A DNA stretch of 64,000 bases from an uncultured delta proteobacterium (GCA_963745025.1 CAVUWD010000019.1:1-64000); one strand, 5' to 3'; shown: positions 3,019-42,790, counted from the first letter of the stretch. The notes: a model not told the origin generated them from the letters alone. Made by a program: numbers and translations.

Positions 3019-3459
3019 GCAAGTTGCCGGTTCAATGGCTCTCGACAGATGTTCCTTGTCGTCTGACGTAAAGGTCTTGTCATTCGGCAGCAGAGACATT
3101 CTCAGCGACCGCAATCCCCGGCTCTTCGGCATGGCTAGCCCGAGCGAGGCGCGCTCAACTGCCCGAAGTTAACGGGAAGAGCCGGCATACGCCGGGTATC
3201 GTGGCCGCAGGAGAAGCCGTTCACGGCCCGAGATCCCGTCGAATCGGGCGATAGAGCGAGAAGTGCCGATGGGTCCGCCAGATGACCTCCAGGTCACCCC
3301 ATACCGAATGGAAGCCGGGCAGGTCCTCCGCATGAAGCGCACGAATGAGCAGAGATCGAAGGTTATGTACATTTCGCCCCGGATATTGCGGCGATCCTCA
3401 ACCAGGGACGGCAAACGTGCTGCTCAAGAGTCTCGAGACGGATGGGGCGCGGACGCCGA

Positions 3460-6103: not shown

Positions 6104-6465
6104 GGTTGAACGCGGCAGAATGGCCGCTGCCGCACTGAACACTCGGCGACGACGACGGTCGCGACGCCGTCTGCGACGGGCTGTTGAAAGCATTGAACCC
6201 GCAAGATGCCTTCCAGGATCAAAGATTGTGCCCTGCTCGAAGACTGCCACTCGGCCGGAGGATAGCCGCTTATTAGCGCCCGAAGTGACGTAAGGCCTCA
6301 ATCTCCGACGCTGCCCAAACACGAGGCGCCCCGTTTCTACGGCTCCGGATTGGTGGACGTGTCGAAAGGTCGCGAGAATTTTTTGCTACGCCACGAAATC
6401 TTTTTTGACGTTGCGTGTTTGAACCCAGCAGAGGCAGACCAGGCGGAAGCGCCCTTGGGCGTCCT

Positions 6466-14057: not shown

Positions 14058-14088
14058 AGTCGTCATAACGGTCGATCTCGGACGCCGG
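14058..14088 (+). repeat. dif/Xer-like 28-bp site, copy 1 (AGTCGTCATAA CGGTCG ATCTCGGACGC)
   Basis: 27/28 identical to the copy at 37066; identity ends 3 bp past the 28-bp core. Confidence 0.6.
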
Positions 14089-14106
14089 GGACTCGAGCCG
14101 GCCGCC

Positions 14107-28299: not shown

Positions 28300-28546
28300 C
28301 GATGCTCCTCCGATCGGTCGGGGCGGCAAACCGGCAAGCCCGATCACGGCGAGATGCCGCCTGTGCGGGCGTCATGGTACACCGGTTGCCGCTTGCGGGC
28401 GAGGTCGGAAAACGAGGCCTGCTGCCGCTCTGCTACCACACCAGGACCAACCACCCCGAACCAGGAGCACCTGGCGTCATTCGAAATCCTCGTCCGTTGG
28501 GGGAGTTGGTTGCTCCTGGTTGTTCTCGGTTGGGTCTTGCAGAGAA

Positions 28547-28590
28547 TTCGTAAGCAGCAGGTCGCCGGTTCGATTCCGGCGGGTGGCCCC
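28547..28590 (+). other. 3' half of tRNA-Thr(CGT)-like, att-site remnant
   Basis: TTCGTAA GCAGC AGGTC GCCGG TTCGATT CCGGC GGGTGGC; no D-arm or 5' acceptor strand upstream. Confidence 0.75.
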
Positions 28591-36020: not shown

Positions 36021-36890
36021 ATGAAGTTCCTGCGCTACTGGGCGAAGGCTTCCGCGAAGGCCACGGCGCCGGACGGCCGGACGCTCGCGTTCGCTTGCTG
36101 GCGCGGGTCGGACCGGAGCCTCGACGATGCGCAGACCTCGGCGCGCATGGCGGCGGAAGAGGTCGCCGCGCGCGCCGCGCAAAGCGGCGAGCCGACGCGC
36201 GGGTACCTGTACGGCGAGCGCCCCATCCGTGAAGAGGTCGTGCGCGAGCTCGCCTCGGGCGACGGCGGTCCAGCCGCGGTGATCACGCGGAACTCCTTCG
36301 GCTGTCTCGTCCTCAACACGGCGCGCGTGCTGTTCGTCGACGTCGATCTACCGCCCGCCCGCCTGGCTGCGTCCGCGGGCGGCTGGCTCGCGCGGCTTCT
36401 CGGCCGGCGCGGGCAGGGATCGAACGATGGCGCCGAAGCGCAAGCGTTCGAGCGCCTCGATGCCTGGGTACGGGCGCATCCGGGAGTGGGGTTCCGAGCC
36501 TATCGGACGCGCGCGGGTCTGCGTTATCTCGGAACGAGCGGTGTCTTCGAACCGGCGAGCGCGGCCGCGGAAGCCCTGCTCGAGGCGCTCGGGTGCGATC
36601 CGCTGTACGTCCGTCTTTGCCGTGCGCAACGGAGCTTCCGCGCGCGGCTCACGCCCAAGCCGTGGCGCTGCGGCGTCGTCAGGCCTCCGTCGCGTTTCCC
36701 GCACGAGAGTGCGGAGCGGGAAGAGGCGTTTCGCCGATGGCTCGAGCGCTACGAGGCTCTGTCTGGGCGCTTTGCCACCTGTGCGTACGTCTCGACCTTC
36801 GGCGTGGAGCGCGTGCACGAGGAGGTCGAGCCGATCCTTCGTTTCCACGACGAAGCCACGCGGACGGCCTCGGGCCTCGCGCTAGCGTGA
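36021..36890 (+). CDS. Hypothetical protein with DxD motif (possible primase-polymerase-like fold)
   Basis: 290-codon ORF; RNSFGCLVLN, VLFVDVD, YRTRAGLR, CDPLY, FRARLTPKPWR. Confidence 0.75.
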   Translation: MKFLRYWAKASAKATAPDGRTLAFACWRGSDRSLDDAQTSARMAAEEVAARAAQSGEPTRGYLYGERPIREEVVRELASGDGGPAAVITRNSFGCLVLNTARVLFVDVDLPPARLAASAGGWLARLLGRRGQGSNDGAEAQAFERLDAWVRAHPGVGFRAYRTRAGLRYLGTSGVFEPASAAAEALLEALGCDPLYVRLCRAQRSFRARLTPKPWRCGVVRPPSRFPHESAEREEAFRRWLERYEALSGRFATCAYVSTFGVERVHEEVEPILRFHDEATRTASGLALA

Positions 36891-36980
36891 CGCGAGGTAC
36901 TTCTTCCGGCGCACCCACTTGGCGAGCGCCTGCTCGCTGTCGATGAGCTCTACACCTTCCCTCTGCAGCGCGTCGAGCGC
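36788..36980 (+). repeat. Left copy of a diverged direct repeat (convergent gene-junction duplication)
   Basis: Aligns with 42007-42267; holds the intact 3' end of the hypothetical gene and an orphan 3' end of the cysteine hydrolase. Confidence 0.9.
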
Positions 36981-37044
36981 AGCGACTTCCGTAATTCCAG
37001 GATTCGTCAGCCGCGCGTATGGAGTTCCCGTGTCCGAAGCCGCG

Positions 37045-37128
37045 GATGAGCGGCGCAAGCGGCCGAGTTGTCATAACGGTCGATCTCGGACGCCGGCATT
37101 TCCCCATCTCTGCCCGCTTTGACGGGGA
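37045..37128 (+). repeat. dif/Xer-like repeat, copy 2 (core AGTTGTCATAA CGGTCG ATCTCGGACGC, 37066-37093)
   Basis: Core plus conserved tail cggcatttccccatctctgcccgctttgacggg shared with copies 3 and 4. Confidence 0.7.
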
Positions 37129-37477
37129 CAAAGCGGCAGCCGAGCCCAGCGGCACCCGGCGTGACGGCACGGGCGCGGACCCTGCCAGGGTCCTGGCAGG
37201 AACCAGCCAAATCTCGTCCGCAGCTGACGTCTTGCCGGGCTCATAGGACCACGAGGAGATCTACCTTCGCGGCGCTCCTCTCGAGCCCGACATGAACGCG
37301 AGCGATTCCACGCACGTGACGACTCTCCCCGATCTAAGCGACGATGTCGCGATGCAACCGGCGGGCGTCGGCGGCCTGGACGATCTCGAGCTCTTCCGCG
37401 TAACGGCGGTGTCACCGTGCCGGGCCAGGTAGATGATGGGAGGTGCCTCGGTCAGCAGGGCAAAATCGGAGTTCTCC

Positions 37478-38824
37478 CTAGAGGGCAAGGCTGATCTCCG
37501 CGGCCAACACCGCTGCGCTTCCGATGTTGCTGAAGCCGTTCGGGTGGATGATGTACTGAAAGTCGGGGGTGACATAGAGCCAGGGGCTGATCTGAAACCT
37601 GTGGTTCGCCTCGACCACCGTCTCGGCTCCCTGCCCCGGAAGATGATCACTGAAAATGCCGCTGATCATGCCCAAGGCGGTCACGTCACGATCGCGACCG
37701 CCAAGAAGACCGTGGTATAGAAAGCCTCCCGCGGCCTGCACGGTTTGCGGATTGATGCTCTCCTGGGGAGCGACGAACACCGCTGCCCAGACGCTTGGTC
37801 CCTTCGGCCGATCCTTGGGGGTCGCTGCGTGCTTGATATACGGGTGCTTCGCACGGGTCGCATAGGTCGCACTGGCGCGCAAATACTCGAGTCCCTGGTA
37901 CTCCAGCCATTCGCTGCGATAGAGCATCTGATCGACGTAGAAATAGAGGCCATAGTTTCCACGCTGCGTGTGCGCTGGGTTGTCGAGTGTAGAAAACCTG
38001 CTGCTCTCGAAATAGCCGCCTACGGTGGCGCTCCCCGGCAGGCCGTTCTCCTCGCGGCTCTGATGATGCTGGTAGGTCATCTGAGCGATTGCCATTTGTC
38101 CCTTCGACGTGTCGAGACTGAAGTCAGTGCCGTTCTTGCTCGGGTCCGCGACCGTCGGGTCGGCATTGTACCCGCCGGCGATGAACCCCCACTCCTTGGT
38201 GGGCTGATAGAACGCCCGTGCGCCCCATGCCGCCGCCTGGCTCCCCGGGAAGAAGATGTTGGCCGAAATGCTGCTCAGATTGTCGTTGATGCCGGCATTG
38301 ACGTAGTAGCCCCACAAGGGAGAGGTCGCAAAGACATCCCCCGCAGTGAGCCGGCCGGCCTGGAGGGTCACCGTCTCGTCAAACAGGGATTGCGACAGAC
38401 TCAGTTGTCCCAGGTACAGGTCGCCTGGGGTAAAGGCCTCCTGCACGTCGAAGAGGTTGCCGATGTCGTCCGACGACACGCTTCGTCCCGAATCCCAGAA
38501 GCCGTTCGCGGTGAACGACGCGCCCCTGAGGCCAACGAGGCGCTCGAAGTCCAATGCCAGGCCGGTGGCAAGAAACCCGGCATAGCTGGATCCCCGTTTC
38601 TCGCCACCCGACACGTTCCCAGCAAGGTCCGCGGTATAATTGGACGAGAACGTTACGCCCTTGCCTTCGAGCTCGTCGCGAACGCCGTGCCAGTTGCCCG
38701 TAGCGGTCCGTTGCTTCAACCACGACCCGAGCGGCGAGTCTTCGTCGGCCATGCTCAGCTGGGCGATCGCCGTTGAGATGGCACAGGTTACGGCGATCAG
38801 GATGATACGTTTCGATAGCATCAT
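37478..38824 (-). CDS. Carbohydrate-selective porin (OprB family)
   Basis: Signal peptide, TGNWHGVRDELEGKG, GNVSGG, PDFQYIIHP. Confidence 0.88.
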   Translation of the reverse strand: MMLSKRIILIAVTCAISTAIAQLSMADEDSPLGSWLKQRTATGNWHGVRDELEGKGVTFSSNYTADLAGNVSGGEKRGSSYAGFLATGLALDFERLVGLRGASFTANGFWDSGRSVSSDDIGNLFDVQEAFTPGDLYLGQLSLSQSLFDETVTLQAGRLTAGDVFATSPLWGYYVNAGINDNLSSISANIFFPGSQAAAWGARAFYQPTKEWGFIAGGYNADPTVADPSKNGTDFSLDTSKGQMAIAQMTYQHHQSREENGLPGSATVGGYFESSRFSTLDNPAHTQRGNYGLYFYVDQMLYRSEWLEYQGLEYLRASATYATRAKHPYIKHAATPKDRPKGPSVWAAVFVAPQESINPQTVQAAGGFLYHGLLGGRDRDVTALGMISGIFSDHLPGQGAETVVEANHRFQISPWLYVTPDFQYIIHPNGFSNIGSAAVLAAEISLAL

Positions 38825-39177
38825 TCTCGCCGGCGCTCCTCGCTCCTGAGTTTTCAAAAGCGGTACTTGCCAGAACGGCATTTACTCACCGGCCGCCTTC
38901 CCGTAACCACGCAGCGCGGCGAGATCTGCCTGGCTCGTCGCACCGGTCACGCCCCGGCGGGATCCGGCGAGGTTCATCGAGCCCGTCAGAGCTCCACGTC
39001 CACCACGGCGCGCGCATCGTCTCCAAGCACCTGCACGAGGCGGGTATAGACGGCGTCTACGAGAGGGTCGACGACAGCCACTCCCAACGGCCACATGGAC
39101 GTCTCGCTGCCGTTCCTCTACGGCGCGCTGAAGCCTTGCGGCGGTCGGCAGGGCGCCAAGAGCGCTTCGGCCGCGCC

Positions 39178-39558
39178 TCAGCTCTGCGGCGATCCCTTCA
39201 CGTAACCCATGGCCTCGACGATGCGTCCGCCGCGCACCCGCATCAGGTTCACACCCCGCACGGAGTCGCTCTCCCTCTCGCCCCACCGAAATCGCCAGCG
39301 GATGATCGCGCGCTCCCCGGCAACCTCCACGTCCTCGAGGTCAAAGTGCGTCCCGGGCGTGGTCGCGATCTCCCGCCAGAGCGCCACGCAGGCCTCCCGT
39401 CCCACGTACCGTGAGCCGTTCGGTGCGGGTGTCGTGTTCTCGATGACGCAGTCGGCCGCGACCAGCTCCGAGAGGTCCGAGGGATCATGGCGCTGAAACA
39501 CGTCATTGAACCGCCCGATCACCTCCACGGTGTCACTCTGCTGCTTGCTCGTGCTCAT
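39178..39558 (-). CDS. NTF2/SnoaL-like protein
   Basis: FNDVFQRHD, CVIENT, RGVNLMRVRGGRIVEAMGYVK. Confidence 0.88.
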   Translation of the reverse strand: MSTSKQQSDTVEVIGRFNDVFQRHDPSDLSELVAADCVIENTTPAPNGSRYVGREACVALWREIATTPGTHFDLEDVEVAGERAIIRWRFRWGERESDSVRGVNLMRVRGGRIVEAMGYVKGSPQS

Positions 39559-39643
39559 AGCTCCGCTCCTCTCGCGTCGGAGTCTGACCGCCGCTGCGAT
39601 CAGCTTTCGTTTGGGAATGCCGCTAGCCCCGCGAACGATTGAG

Positions 39644-39730
39644 TATAGCGGCCACGAGAGCCGGGGAGCTACATCACCTTCGATCTCGGACGCCGGCGCT
39701 TCCCCGTCTCGTGCCCGCTTTGACGGGTCG
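39644..39730 (+). repeat. dif/Xer-like repeat, copy 3 (core GAGCTACATCA CCTTCG ATCTCGGACGC, 39666-39693)
   Basis: Direct repeat of 40471-40556 over about 85 bp. Confidence 0.7.
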
Positions 39731-39821
39731 ACGAGGAGCTTGCATCAGCGGAGCCCGACCAGTACTCAGCAGGGCATCCGGGGCGCGTTGCGTCTCGAGA
39801 CCGCCGCTGGAAGGAGCTCTC

Positions 39822-40502
39822 ATGTTGAAGATCTACGGTGCGCTGCTCTCACCGTTCGTGCGCAAGGTGCGCGTCGTGCTCGCCGAGAAGCAGCTGCAGT
39901 ACGAGCTCGTGCCGAGCAATCCTTTCGAGAAGTCGCCGGAGCTCCTCAAGCGGAGCCCGCTCGGCCGCATTCCCGCCTTCGAGGACGAGCAGGGCCGCAC
40001 GCTCGCCGACAGCACGGTCGTCGTCGAGTACCTGGAGGAGCGCTTTCCAAGCCTGGCGCTCTTTCCCAAGGATCCCTACGAGCGCGCGCGGGTCCGTTGG
40101 TTCGACGAGTACGCCGACGGCGGCATGGGCCCGAGCCTGACCGGCAAGATCTTCTTCCAGCGCGTGATCAGCGCCAAGTTGATGCGGAAGGTGCCCGACG
40201 AGACGGTGGTCGCGACCGCCATCGCCGAGCTGCCCAACTACCTCGCCTACCTCGAGAAGGAGCTCGGCACGAACGACTATCTGGTCGCCAATACCTTCAC
40301 CCTCGCCGACATCAGCGTCGCCTGCCAGTTCATCAATCTGCGTCACGCGGGGGTCGAGATCGACGCCGGGAAGTACCCGAGCCTGGCCGCCTGGTTCGCA
40401 CGCGTGACGAGCCGGCCGTCGCTGAAGGCGCTGATCGAGCAGGACCGGGGGTTTCTGGCGAAGCTCGAGGATAGCGGCGACAAGGGCCGGAAAGCTACAT
40501 GA
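39822..40502 (+). CDS. Glutathione S-transferase family protein
   Basis: SPFVRKVR, SPLGRIP, DSTVVVEYLE, FTLADI; AAGGAG RBS; stop codon lies inside repeat copy 4. Confidence 0.92.
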   Translation: MLKIYGALLSPFVRKVRVVLAEKQLQYELVPSNPFEKSPELLKRSPLGRIPAFEDEQGRTLADSTVVVEYLEERFPSLALFPKDPYERARVRWFDEYADGGMGPSLTGKIFFQRVISAKLMRKVPDETVVATAIAELPNYLAYLEKELGTNDYLVANTFTLADISVACQFINLRHAGVEIDAGKYPSLAAWFARVTSRPSLKALIEQDRGFLAKLEDSGDKGRKAT

Positions 40503-40556
40503 CGGTCGATCTCGGACGCCGGCACTTCCCCATGTTTGTCCGCTTTGACCGGTCGC
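40471..40556 (+). repeat. dif/Xer-like repeat, copy 4 (core AAGCTACATGA CGGTCG ATCTCGGACGC, 40492-40519)
   Basis: Same motif and tail as copies 2 and 3. Confidence 0.7.
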
Positions 40557-40600
40557 ACAGCGCCACCGCATTTACAGACAAGCGATCGAGGTAAGCAACG

Positions 40601-40999
40601 ATGAATCATCTGGAAACCACGAAGCACATGTACGAGGCGTTTGCCCGCGGCGACGTGCCCGCCATCCTGGCGTGTCTGCACGAAGACGTTGAATGGGAAT
40701 ACGGCGTCATCTCTCACGACGTGCCGTGGTACCAGGCGCGGCGCGGGCGCAGTGAGGTGATGGGCTTCTTCGAAAGCCTGGCAGCATTGACCTGGCACAA
40801 GTTCGAGCCCAAGTCGTTTCTCGCTGCGGACGATCTGGTAGTCGTGCTGATCGATGCCGACTATACCGTCACCGCCACCGGCGGCCGCGTGGTCTACGAG
40901 GACGCCATCATGCTCTGGCGCTTCGACGATCAGGGACTGGTGCGGCGCTTCGCCCATCGCGTCGATACCCACCAGGCCTGGCTCGCCTGTCGGCGCTGA
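40601..40999 (+). CDS. NTF2/SnoaL-like protein
   Basis: YEAFARGDVPAIL, DVEWE, WRFDDQG, HRVDT. Confidence 0.9.
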   Translation: MNHLETTKHMYEAFARGDVPAILACLHEDVEWEYGVISHDVPWYQARRGRSEVMGFFESLAALTWHKFEPKSFLAADDLVVVLIDADYTVTATGGRVVYEDAIMLWRFDDQGLVRRFAHRVDTHQAWLACRR

Positions 41000-41183
41000 A
41001 GATTCATGGCGTGGCCGCACTGCACGGCCTCAACCTGCGACGCGAGCGGCACCGCACCTTCCAGACCCTAGCCTTAGTCGCATGAGCATTGAACGGCGTT
41101 GCCACTTACAACATGTTGGTTTTCACATTTCCCTGAACCGTTATACTCGGGTCGCGTTCGCCCGAGATGCCTCGGAGGTCGCC

Positions 41184-41858
41184 ATGTCCGAAGTGCGCAC
41201 GCCGCTCGACGTTCCCCTGACCCGAGAGCAGATTCAGCAGTTCTACTCGATGGTGGCGCCGGCCTACGACGGCCAGACGGCCCGCTTCGAGGCGGAGCCG
41301 AAGGCGCTGGCGATCGGCAAGCTGGCGCGAAAGCCGGGTGAGAGGCTCCTGGAGGTCGCGGTTGGCACCGGCGGCGGCATGCTGGAGGTGACGCGCGCGA
41401 GCGGGGCGGAAGGCGTCGTGGGCATCGACGTGGCGCCGGGCATGCTCGCCTTCACGCGAAAGCGGCTCGCCGAAGCCGGGATCGGGCCGGTCCCGCTCCT
41501 TCTCGCCGACGCGCGTTACCTGCCGTTCAAGGCAGCGACGTTCGACTGCCTCCTCAACAGCTACATGCTCGACCTCATCCCGAACGCGGACACAAGCAAG
41601 GTGCTGGCCGAGTTCCGCCGCGTCCTGAAGCCGGGCGGCCGGATCGTGCTCGCCAACCTGACGGAGGGAGAAGGCGAAGACGCGGCCTTCTCCGAAGGCT
41701 GGAAGGAGAGGTTCCAGGCGAACCCGCTGCAGGTTGGCGGCTGCCGGCCGGTGCTCATCCGGCCCTTCCTGGAGTCCGAGGGCTTCGTGGACATCGTGCG
41801 CGAGTACCGAGGCGGCCAGAGCTGGCCGACGGAGGTCGTGACGGCGAAAGCGCCTTAG
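41184..41858 (+). CDS. Class I SAM-dependent methyltransferase (UbiE-like)
   Basis: LLEVAVGTG, GIDVAPGML, DARYLPF, RRVLKPGG; GGAGG RBS. Confidence 0.9.
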   Translation: MSEVRTPLDVPLTREQIQQFYSMVAPAYDGQTARFEAEPKALAIGKLARKPGERLLEVAVGTGGGMLEVTRASGAEGVVGIDVAPGMLAFTRKRLAEAGIGPVPLLLADARYLPFKAATFDCLLNSYMLDLIPNADTSKVLAEFRRVLKPGGRIVLANLTEGEGEDAAFSEGWKERFQANPLQVGGCRPVLIRPFLESEGFVDIVREYRGGQSWPTEVVTAKAP

Positions 41859-42006
41859 GTGAGCAGCCGAAGAGGCCGACTTTCGCTCCACACAGAAGCG
41901 CGCCAGAGTCCGCGCAGCCACTGACGGGGTTTGCGCTCTCACTGTCGTTCTGCCCAGCTTCCATACGACCCTGCGGCGAGATCTGGGGTCTTTCGTCGAT
42001 CGTTCT

Positions 42007-42267
42007 CGTCTCGACCGTTGGCGCGGAGGACGTGCACGGGGAGGTCGAGCCGATTCTCCGACTCCACGACGAGGCCACGCGGGCGGCCTCGGGGCTCGCG
42101 CTGGGAGCGTGCGCCACGGATCGCGCCCGTTGGGCGCGCTCAAAGGGGATGCAACATCCTGCCGAGCTAGCGTGACGCGAGGTACTTCTTCCGGCGCACC
42201 CACTCGGAGAGCGCCTGCTCGCTGTCGATGAGCTCCGCACCCTTCCGCCGAAGCGCCTCCAGGGCGC
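42007..42267 (+). repeat. Right copy of the diverged direct repeat (with a ~60-bp spacer between the two gene tails)
   Basis: Orphan tail VSTVGAEDVHGEVEPILRLHDEATRAASGLAL, plus the intact cysteine hydrolase 3' end. Confidence 0.9.
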
Positions 42268-42790
42268 GAGCACGGCGGGCATCGGTCGCGGCGGCGACCG
42301 CATTGCGAACCACCTTCACCTTGTAGCCGCGGTTCATCGCGGCTTCGGCGGTGTAGTAAACGGAAGCATCCGCGAAGACGCCGGCGAGCACGAGATGATC
42401 GACCGCGTGCGAACGCAGGAATTGGTCGAGCTCCGGATTGGAGAACGCGTCGGCCCGGTCTTTCCGAAAAACCGGTCCGCTCGGCTGCAGGAGGCGCGAG
42501 TCGAGCTCGCCGCCCGCCGGAGATTCGCTCCGCACGTAGACGAGCTCCACGCCGAGGGACCGGGCGTTCTCGACGAGGGGGTTCGTCGCTGCGAGCATCG
42601 GAGCGACCTGGCTTTGCGCGACGGACAGCCGACCCCGGGGCTCGAGGAATTCCTTCTGCACGTCGACGACGACCAGCGCGACCTGCGGACGGTCGTAGAT
42701 CGGAATGCGTTCCCCAGTGGTGGCTCGCTCGCAGCCGCCGAGCGCGAGGGCCAAGAAGCAGGCGGCGAGGGGAGCTCGCTTCAGTTTCAC
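42167..42790 (-). CDS. Isochorismatase/cysteine hydrolase family lipoprotein
   Basis: Lipobox LGGC; ALVVVDVQ, FRKDRADAFSNPEL, GVFADASV. Confidence 0.88.
   Translation of the reverse strand: MKLKRAPLAACFLALALGGCERATTGERIPIYDRPQVALVVVDVQKEFLEPRGRLSVAQSQVAPMLAATNPLVENARSLGVELVYVRSESPAGGELDSRLLQPSGPVFRKDRADAFSNPELDQFLRSHAVDHLVLAGVFADASVYYTAEAAMNRGYKVKVVRNAVAAATDARRARALEALRRKGAELIDSEQALSEWVRRKKYLASR

Follow-up and report, generated by a model that had tools for sequence, protein, structure and literature searches.

How could unrelated genes come to stand in a short row, punctuated by similar sites, on a chromosome with no dedicated integrase nearby? This question is raised by a 64,000-nucleotide stretch of DNA from an uncultured delta proteobacterium (GCA_963745025.1 CAVUWD010000019.1:1-64000, hereafter the window), which is C19:1-64000 of a draft assembly of 20 contigs and 5.65 Mb (genome G000). 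The first-pass annotation of the window described three same-strand sites resembling dif, the site of recombination by XerC and XerD (XerCD), which separate an OprB and a SnoaL gene from a glutathione S-transferase (GST) gene, and the latter from a second SnoaL gene and a methyltransferase gene. The sequence is as described, and the repeat search, the profile matches and the Pfam assignments agree on it. We consider it somewhat likelier to be right than wrong that these sites belong to an Xer/dif-type family, which forms direct-repeat arrays of gene modules, and in which we infer XerCD to be the catalyst. As judged from the sequence, the Xer/dif-type reading is supported both for the anatomy of the sites and for their behavior across the genome.

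A repeat search of the window returned a family of direct repeats with three copies (37072-37126, 39672-39726 and 40498-40552), of which copies 2 and 3 are 85% identical over 65 nt in a pairwise alignment. The exact 16-mer CGATCTCGGACGCCGG occurs in the window four times, always on the + strand (14073, 37081, 39681 and 40507), while at up to 3 mismatches it has 12 matches against 6.3 expected, which is an uninformative count. In the search of the whole genome that the first-pass annotation had proposed, the same word gave 79 matches at up to 2 mismatches, as compared to 8 for the reversed control. Iteration of an nhmmer profile raised the number of genomic copies from 48 to 77 and then to 92, a sequence-only covariance model found 96, and 19 of 20 contigs carry copies. 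Aligned with one another, these outline an asymmetric element, about 85-95 nt long and with sharp borders, which agrees with the conserved context of ~85-90 bp noted earlier, and which consists of a left arm of ~25 nt, a core of 28-29 bp and a right arm of ~33-45 nt. The left arm starts with GAGGATAGC, followed by a variable stretch containing A(Y)AAG and GCCNGA. The core has the consensus ACRTAA, then 5-7 variable bases, then (CG)ATMTCNGACGC, and on the right side 10-40 variable bases precede CCCG-YTTYKA-CGG. On the + strand the order within the core is an XerD-type arm, a central region of 6-7 bp, and an XerC-type arm. The information per column, calculated for 67 non-redundant copies, is high in ACRTAA (columns 31-36), low in columns 37-40 and high again in CGATMTCNGACGC (columns 41-53). 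The major subfamily comprises 31 near-identical copies, which have unrelated flanks on both sides, and several of which are located at contig ends. The elements are mostly intergenic.

The genome was searched with canonical dif words, which identified one intergenic site, C16:507608-507635, with the sequence ACGTCCGATAA-GATATA-TTATGTAAACT. The 20-nt center of this site is single-copy and identical in G000, in G001 from the same genus, and in G006 and G007 from the same family, which represent three genera, and the flanks of the site are unrelated. The center was not found in the remaining four genomes of the family, all of which are incomplete. On the basis of the canonical words and the single-copy conservation, the site on C16 was taken as the chromosomal dif, which the first-pass annotation had left to be located together with the genes of the recombinases. 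A XerC gene is located at C14:117646-118647, and a XerD-like gene at about 234980-235906 of C20. Using NCBIfam models, the former scored 337.9 bits with TIGR02224 (cut-off 335.15), while the latter was matched best as XerD with 311.4 bits, which missed the cut-off of 329.6, but passed the cut-off of the PRK00283 subfamily.

The core of copy 1, read on the minus strand, is GCGTCCGAGAT-CGACCG-TTATGACAACT, and it matches the host dif at 8 of 11 positions of the XerC-type arm and 9 of 11 positions of the XerD-type arm. The latter value is that of the left arm, which the first-pass annotation had likened to XerD arms on the minus strand. For both arms together the matches were 17 of 22 in copy 1, 14 of 22 in copy 2 and 15 of 22 in copy 3, the last two counted by hand. 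To see these numbers against the genome, both strands of the whole sequence were scanned with the arms of dif and a spacer of 6 or 7, and a Markov-1 simulated genome of the same size was used as a control. The scan showed that the sole site with 22/22 matches was dif itself. At 17/22 all 11 sites were element cores, while the simulated genome had none, and at 16/22 element cores made up 17 of the 23 sites, while the simulated genome had 5. A rough estimate from the simulated rate gives a chance of ~5e-5 that a random 85-nt repeat contains a site with at least 16/22 matches to dif, and because the copies share one ancestor this match counts as one event, not ninety. The likeness of the 28-bp core to dif thus stands when it is measured against the genome's own dif, with up to 17/22 arm matches.

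The elements are clustered, and their neighbors mostly point the same way. There were 45 adjacent pairs within 10 kb, against 13 expected and a maximum of 23 in 500 placements, and many neighboring elements are spaced by 0.7-3 kb. The orientation was the same in 23 of the 25 neighbor pairs within 3 kb, and in 38 of the 45 within 10 kb. On the element-rich contigs the genes between elements are an unrelated mix with many fragments, including luciferase-like monooxygenases, short-chain dehydrogenases/reductases, methyltransferases, and a large family of cyclase/AAA/TPR paralogues. When the flanks of elements in relatives were compared with G000, synteny on both sides was rare. The paralogues just mentioned form an expanded family of ~1100-aa proteins with a double zinc ribbon, an adenylate/guanylate cyclase domain, AAA_16 and TPR, which adjoin elements in several places (C17:1174-6254, C17:63443-68744, C3:1868-5251, C13:470250-473606 and C6:516359-519115). 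Their 5′ regions are 80-84% identical over ~400 bp, beginning 4 nt from one element.

Several observations point to recombination at the core. The one-sided profile matches comprise 11 left-only rows, with the left arm and the core, and 11 right-only rows, with the core and the right arm, although two of these 22 are probably near-full copies with indels. One arrangement, at C8:142803 to 141638, reads in element orientation as a core with a right arm, 1041 bp with a single open reading frame (ORF) of 256 aa, and a left arm with a core, and the two partial copies have a 39-nt core in common. This is the arrangement expected if a circle with one full site had integrated at a core-only site. The 256-aa gene is 94% identical to a locus in G006, but this does not prove cassette transfer, as the homology ends before the sites and the G006 locus has no site. 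In G000 and in contigs from metagenomes, no fewer than four different left halves are found together with the right-arm type TACGGATTCCTCCTTACCGCCCGCTTTTACGG. Pairs of copies that are alike in one half only switch at columns 28-42 or 52-55, and since the core is conserved in every copy, the exact switch point is hidden. At one orthologous locus, G001:C1 against G000:C16:873 kb, the left arm, the XerD-type arm and the central region are all similar, and the similarity stops at the XerC-type arm.

Such data are consistent with a mechanism in which the host XerC and XerD would bind the core, and two direct-repeat sites with compatible central regions would recombine to excise the module between them as a circle with one hybrid site. 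The circle could re-enter at any other site of the family, and occasionally at a core-like pseudo-site, so that modules would be shuffled and arrays built without a dedicated integrase nearby. XerC-first, FtsK-independent exchange aided by accessory sequences is known from cer/psi and from integrative mobile elements that exploit Xer (IMEXs) of the CTX type, and the conserved arms may be accessory sequences that allow an exchange of this kind. Among the sites of the window, 1 and 3 make the best candidate pair because their central regions (CGGTCG) and their XerC-type arms are identical, while the central region of copy 2, CCTTCG on the + strand, is unlike theirs at 2 of 6 positions. The three copies, their cargo and the other features with coordinates are listed in Table 1.

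Table 1. Positions of elements, genes and insertion borders in the window, and of the repeated recombinase module on other contigs of G000
Feature	Position	Strand	Basis or remark
Element copy 1	37046..37127	+	Profile; divergent left arm, core 37066-37093, right arm
Element copy 2	39641..39727	+	Profile; core 39666-39693; between divergent SnoaL (-) and GST (+)
Element copy 3	40467..40552	+	Profile; core 40492-40519
Further full element copy	6258..6343	+	Profile; left arm of one subfamily, core and right arm of the major subfamily
Core-only member GTCGTCATAACGGTCGATCTCGGACGCCGG	14059..14092	+	16/22 to dif; without recognizable arms
Cut-down member	3352..3399	-	Left arm, XerD-type arm, central region, half of XerC-type arm
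OprB-family porin gene, module 1	37478..38881	-	Pfam
SnoaL_2 gene, module 1	39178..39558	-	Pfam
GST gene, module 2	39822..40502	+	Pfam
SnoaL_2 gene, module 3	40601..40999	+	Pfam
Class I S-adenosylmethionine (SAM) methyltransferase gene, module 3	41184..41858	+	Pfam
Inserted three-module block, 5.3 kb	36981..42293		Relatives and public-run contigs
Left copy of duplicated target	36788..36980		3′ end of gene A (+), 3′ fragment of isochorismatase gene B (-)
Right copy of duplicated target	42007..42265		A′ fragment, ~60 extra nt, 3′ end of intact gene B
Gene A, 297 aa	35997..36890	+	No Pfam match; left neighbor of insertion
Gene B, isochorismatase family	42167..42790	-	Right neighbor of insertion; convergent with gene A
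2.9-kb DnaN-like + recombinase module	C17:42762-45674		~1.8 kb from an element
2.9-kb DnaN-like + recombinase module	C11:266473-263542		94.7% identical, recombinase frameshifted, ~290 bp from an element
2.9-kb DnaN-like + recombinase module	C6:498249-500892		>12 kb from any element

The positions of the copies relative to genes could also be seen as those of a cis-regulatory or RNA element, such as a promoter, leader, small RNA or 3′ stabilizer, which is kept for expression. Copies 2 and 3 are located 95 and 49 nt upstream of genes on the + strand, a TTGAC motif is present near the right end, and the mostly intergenic location of the elements would fit as well. However, there is no + strand gene downstream of copy 1, the neighboring genes are functionally unrelated, and no consistent orientation of elements toward them was seen by eye in crude gene calls. 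RNAalifold found 0 consensus pairs in 27 diverse representatives, and Rfam gave no match in the window at gathering scores and none at E <=1 over 36900-40700. A regulatory role also leaves the match to dif, the partial copies and the synteny breaks unexplained, and we regard it as very improbable. Two candidate hairpins did not help in this regard: the one drawn by eye in the left arm (CCAGG/CCTGG, CGGC/GCCG) was dropped because its register is not kept across subfamilies, while the mini-hairpin CCCG-YTTYKA-CGGG at the right end is invariant in all copies, and so gives no support either way.

A number of observations weigh against recombination by XerCD at the core as the full explanation. The first group concerns the core itself. 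Among the 67 non-redundant copies, conservation follows the order of an arm, a variable center and another arm, but the outer half of the XerD-type arm is only weakly conserved, and the core of the major subfamily, GCGTCGGATAT-TGAGGCT-TTACGTCAACT, fits dif with a 7-bp spacer. The right arm, which had been called invariant and non-canonical for XerC, shares its outer seven bases, CGTCCGA, with the XerC arm of the host, but its innermost bases are GAT or TAT instead of the TAA of dif. Many partial copies stop at variable positions and may be plain truncations. Since the core is conserved throughout, the peak of switch points is partly forced, and it also comes from non-independent pairs, so that it can be used only qualitatively.

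The second group concerns the ends of the element. The information per column peaks at both termini, GAGGATAG and CCCGYTTYKACGG, where it is above that of the core, and because the most conserved parts are the termini of a longer element, a plain 28-bp Xer model leaves them unexplained. In ~12 of 27 representatives the ACGG right end is followed by an extra GGCGCAYAAG, which the others do not have, and these short and long right ends point to a second breakpoint there. In at least one case, at C6:480501, a paralogue of an intact C13 gene is truncated at its 5′ side and begins precisely where an element has its outer right end, an arrangement that no crossover in the core could give. The contigs of four public runs were also compared with the window, with no weight given to parts without cover. 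Three contig joints, in three of the runs, all begin at 37127, where copy 1 ends on its right side, and one of them then reads CGCACAA. Neither a circle junction nor a joint linking the cores of two sites was found in the contigs of the four runs, which says little, as rare variants are dropped from contigs. The same contigs also contain several short-sided joints (21-24 nt) and "go-back" joints. Taken together, the termini indicate that there is some event at, or selection for, the ends of the element as well.

These features of the termini would be explained if the ~90-nt unit were a non-autonomous mobile repeat, like a miniature inverted-repeat transposable element (MITE), a repetitive extragenic palindrome (REP) or a palindrome-associated transposable element (PATE), with an enzyme that recognizes its termini. 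The dif-like center would then be carried along as a passenger, mimic a target or be there by coincidence, and the arrays would result from preferential insertion into variable regions. The sharp boundaries with the most conserved columns at the termini, the near-identical major subfamily of 31 copies, some of them at contig ends, the truncated genes that abut the outer right end, the joints that start at 37127 in all three runs, and the short and long variants of the right end all agree with such a unit. On the other hand, its ends, GAGGATAG... and ...YTTYKACGG, are not complementary, and there is no duplicated flank in 31 aligned copies. No transposase is consistently adjacent: the two Y1_Tnp matches (C13:188500 and C11:419866) are far from elements, TnpB has no match in the genome, and IS110-family genes are not located beside elements, save one weak fragment. 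The consensus fold lacks a hairpin, a dif match of the observed quality in a random repeat would be rare (see the estimate above), and no pair of empty and filled loci differing by the element alone was found among the flank comparisons with relatives. The missing inverted repeats, target duplications, adjacent transposase, Y1 or TnpB partner and hairpin make this explanation weak, and we consider it unlikely. The motif was not found to be the end of an insertion sequence (IS) or a MITE, which had been named as a way in which the dif-like reading could fail. The IS110-family domain matches at C8:156891, C12:73056 and C16:891103 have identical scores and are probably copies of one IS, and none of the three adjoins an 85-nt element.

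The distribution of the element was surveyed with the covariance model in 41 genomes, consisting of 8 from its own family, which are 65-84% complete, and 33 from other families of the class. The number of copies was 96 in G000 and 47 in G001, while in the other genomes of the family it was 15 in G006, 9 in each of G002 and G007, 2 in G003, 1 in G004 and 0 in G005. In the other families only weak matches were found, in 3 of the 33 genomes. A strict 29-base pattern identified 30 contigs with 41 profile matches in JGI metagenomes, several of these contigs being duplicates of one another. In genome contigs of a species collection the matches to a degenerate pattern were mostly chance singletons: among the matches listed (at least 99 stretches), 80 loci were scanned, and 7 profile matches were found in 6 of them, all from two metagenome-assembled genomes labeled "uncultured delta proteobacterium". 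A pattern search of viral contigs had 5 matches, and a single one of them was also matched by the profile, weakly and in part, so that nothing convincing came of it. These results suggest that the site family is lineage-specific.

The distribution also bears on whether the same sites and the same cassette logic could be served by a dedicated recombinase, for example by a 191-aa Xer-like tyrosine recombinase that consists of the catalytic domain only. This protein, for which Xer models are the best matches, is encoded in a repeated 2.9-kb module together with a small ORF and a DnaN (beta-clamp)-like protein of 451-499 aa (Table 1). The recombinase was found in G000, G001 and G006, and as a fragment in G002, but not in G003, G004, G005 and G007, which roughly follows the number of elements, and the module copies on C11 and C17 are near elements. 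This correlation is weak, however, as it comes from only eight genomes, which are related and incomplete, and G007 has 9 elements without a match to the recombinase. Moreover, the borders of the module are without an element or a core-like site, the C6 copy is distant from any element, and both arms of the core match the host dif, as fits the host enzymes. Hence, a dedicated enzyme of this kind seems quite improbable to us. The module is followed by a conserved 70 nt in the form of a terminator-like hairpin and a T run.

Two other repeated units occur in the same regions as the element. A family of ~150-nt repeats contains a long inverted repeat, GAACCAGGAGCAAC...GTTGCTCCTGGTT, with two CTGCTACC words before it, and is found at 28424-28565 in the window and at C6:53540-53720, C8:141382-141495, C8:149552-149696 and C16:452497-452643. 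Apart from the query, G000 contains this repeat at 10 more places, and there are many copies of it in G001 and in G006. It is often located 120-450 nt from the 85-nt element, and one copy adjoins a gene for a 436-aa integrase (C8:100220-101530). The other is a 1.1-kb unit ending in an element, which is 96% identical between C6:53816-54927 of G000 and L251 (G001:C15:373-1482) in differing contexts. Its left border is a fragment like a tRNA 3′ end, GGGTTCAAATCCCGTCGCA, suggesting the presence of tRNA-targeting integrative elements in the same regions.

How the row of modules in the window came to its place can be approached from relatives and from the public runs. The three modules form a 5.3-kb block, which interrupts a glycosyltransferase and sugar-transferase cluster between gene A and gene B (Table 1). 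In G006 these two genes are adjacent with no insert, while G003, G004 and G007 lack both of them, and the flanking glycosyltransferase genes there stand side by side. The A/B junction of G001 is occupied by another insert, of 9.2 kb, with an exosortase-like gene, unknown genes and no integrase, which contains a decayed copy like copy 1 and is flanked by a 39-bp perfect repeat. In contigs of the public runs X1 and X4, which belong to two separate studies, 36980 is followed by 28 other letters and then by 42294, and this joint is the empty site. The cargo is not syntenic in relatives, a point that the first-pass annotation had suggested checking. Across sites 2 and 3, other X1 contigs have their modules in the same order as the window. 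Two smaller differences are also located here. The ~60 nt at 42103-42162 are present only in the right A/B copy, and a contig of run X2 skips 42099-42166. Module 3 contains a second small variable spot at 41020-41142, where an X1 contig has 286 other letters in place of 121 nt that separate the second SnoaL gene from the methyltransferase gene.

The borders of the block do not look like products of the sites, which is a further point to be set against the role of XerCD at this locus. The block is flanked by imperfect direct repeats of 193 bp with 86-87% identity, and the weight matrix of the core found no core-like site at its borders. The earlier proposal that repeated Xer integration built this locus is therefore not demonstrated. 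Most likely, the three-module block would have come as one circle that also bore the A/B junction in a homeologous copy, with recombination inside the 193-bp homology as its way of entry. This raises the question of whether the sites could all be inactive relics, with the present arrays produced by ordinary homologous recombination between repeats. The many degenerate or truncated copies, the long homeologous repeats that bound the block in place of sites, and the lack of site-to-site joints in the contigs of the four runs would agree with this. It is opposed by the 31 near-identical copies in G000, together with copies like them in G001, in G006 and in many contigs from metagenomes, which speak for recent spread, and by the strong conservation of the core across divergent subfamilies, so that we give this explanation very little credence.

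The closest known system to the Xer/dif-type arrays proposed here is that of the dif modules of Acinetobacter. In that genus, pdif sites are found on Rep_3/OrfX plasmids and in chromosomal "dif module islands", and the modules (C and D) are bounded by sites of alternating orientation. The two systems are alike in having many extra dif-like sites, recombinase-free modules and module islands. In contrast to the alternating sites of Acinetobacter, the sites described here are mostly direct repeats (23 of 25 neighbor pairs within 3 kb), and their cores sit in a conserved element of ~85-95 nt with specific arms. They are also present in 92-96 copies across a 5.6-Mb draft genome, on 19 of 20 contigs, in contrast to the Rep_3/OrfX plasmids of Acinetobacter, while the host is an unrelated uncultured soil or sediment lineage and the cargo is metabolic instead of resistance genes. 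Abstracts on Acinetobacter describe a number of additional 28-bp dif-like sites next to the main dif, and recombinase-free small modules in linear arrays (PMC13141974, PMC12907356). Rearrangement is described there between sites with identical or near-identical spacers, and the host XerCD is assumed to be responsible (PMC13141974, PMC12907356). In a 2026 abstract, the dif module system is described as unique to this genus (PMC13141974 / PMC12907356). In the titles and abstracts of the literature searched, we also found no such site family outside this genus.

Other Xer-dependent elements share a part of these features. IMEXs (CTX-phi, VGJ-phi, TLC-phi and the gonococcal island) resemble the family in carrying a dif-like site on integrase-free DNA and in forming arrays in direct orientation, and they use the host XerCD, as is proposed here for the family. 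They differ in integrating at the chromosomal dif, while here the sites are dispersed, the nearest C16 elements (455999 and 627662) are >50 kb from dif, and no phage or plasmid genes accompany the sites. The first-pass annotation had spoken of IMEX-like products, which in the strict sense does not apply, as no site lies at dif. The cer and psi sites have an Xer core with a central region of 6-8 bp and an accessory sequence on the XerC side, and they delete DNA between direct repeats. Their accessory DNA of ~160-190 bp binds PepA with ArgR or ArcA, and they occur once per plasmid. An Xer-type core with accessory-type sequence and direct repeats is common to both, while the arms described here are 25-45 nt long, are present on both sides, and belong to dozens of chromosomal copies.

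The likeness to integron arrays consists in short modules of the same orientation with one site of ~60-140 nt per module. The stop codon of a gene can fall within the site in both cases, as for the GST gene here, whose reading frame enters the left arm of copy 3 and ends with a TGA at 40500-40502, inside the element. Unlike in integrons, there are no RYYYAAC/GTTRRRY inverse cores and no consensus hairpin, and the arrays are scattered instead of being located in one place beside intI/attI. Integron-integrase models scored far below their cut-offs with all 10 recombinase genes tested (of 22 matches). With no attC-like fold and no integron integrase among these genes, the attC-like reading is, as the first-pass annotation had judged it, the weaker one.

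A wider form of the Xer/dif-type reading is that in this family of uncultured soil or sediment bacteria the chromosome as a whole is an integrase-free analogue of an integron, in which ~100 sites with accessory arms mimic dif and the housekeeping XerCD shuffles modules of one to three genes, which leave as circles and re-enter at any other site. We put this forward only tentatively, and think it is rather less probable than not. If it were true, such a system would generate variable islands and drive the expansion of some gene families. According to the titles and abstracts consulted, Xer-dependent module shuffling has so far been documented essentially for Acinetobacter plasmids, and recently for one Acinetobacter chromosome. 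The family described here follows the same logic in an unrelated uncultured environmental lineage, at the scale of a chromosome, in direct orientation and with an 85-95-nt element around each site. The 28-bp core, with or without its arms, offers a concrete substrate on which the licensing of Xer recombination outside dif can be studied. Should the sites be active, taking over the universal machinery for dimer resolution would be a way to integron-like shuffling that is more general than thought, and it would account for much of the structure of the accessory genome in this group.

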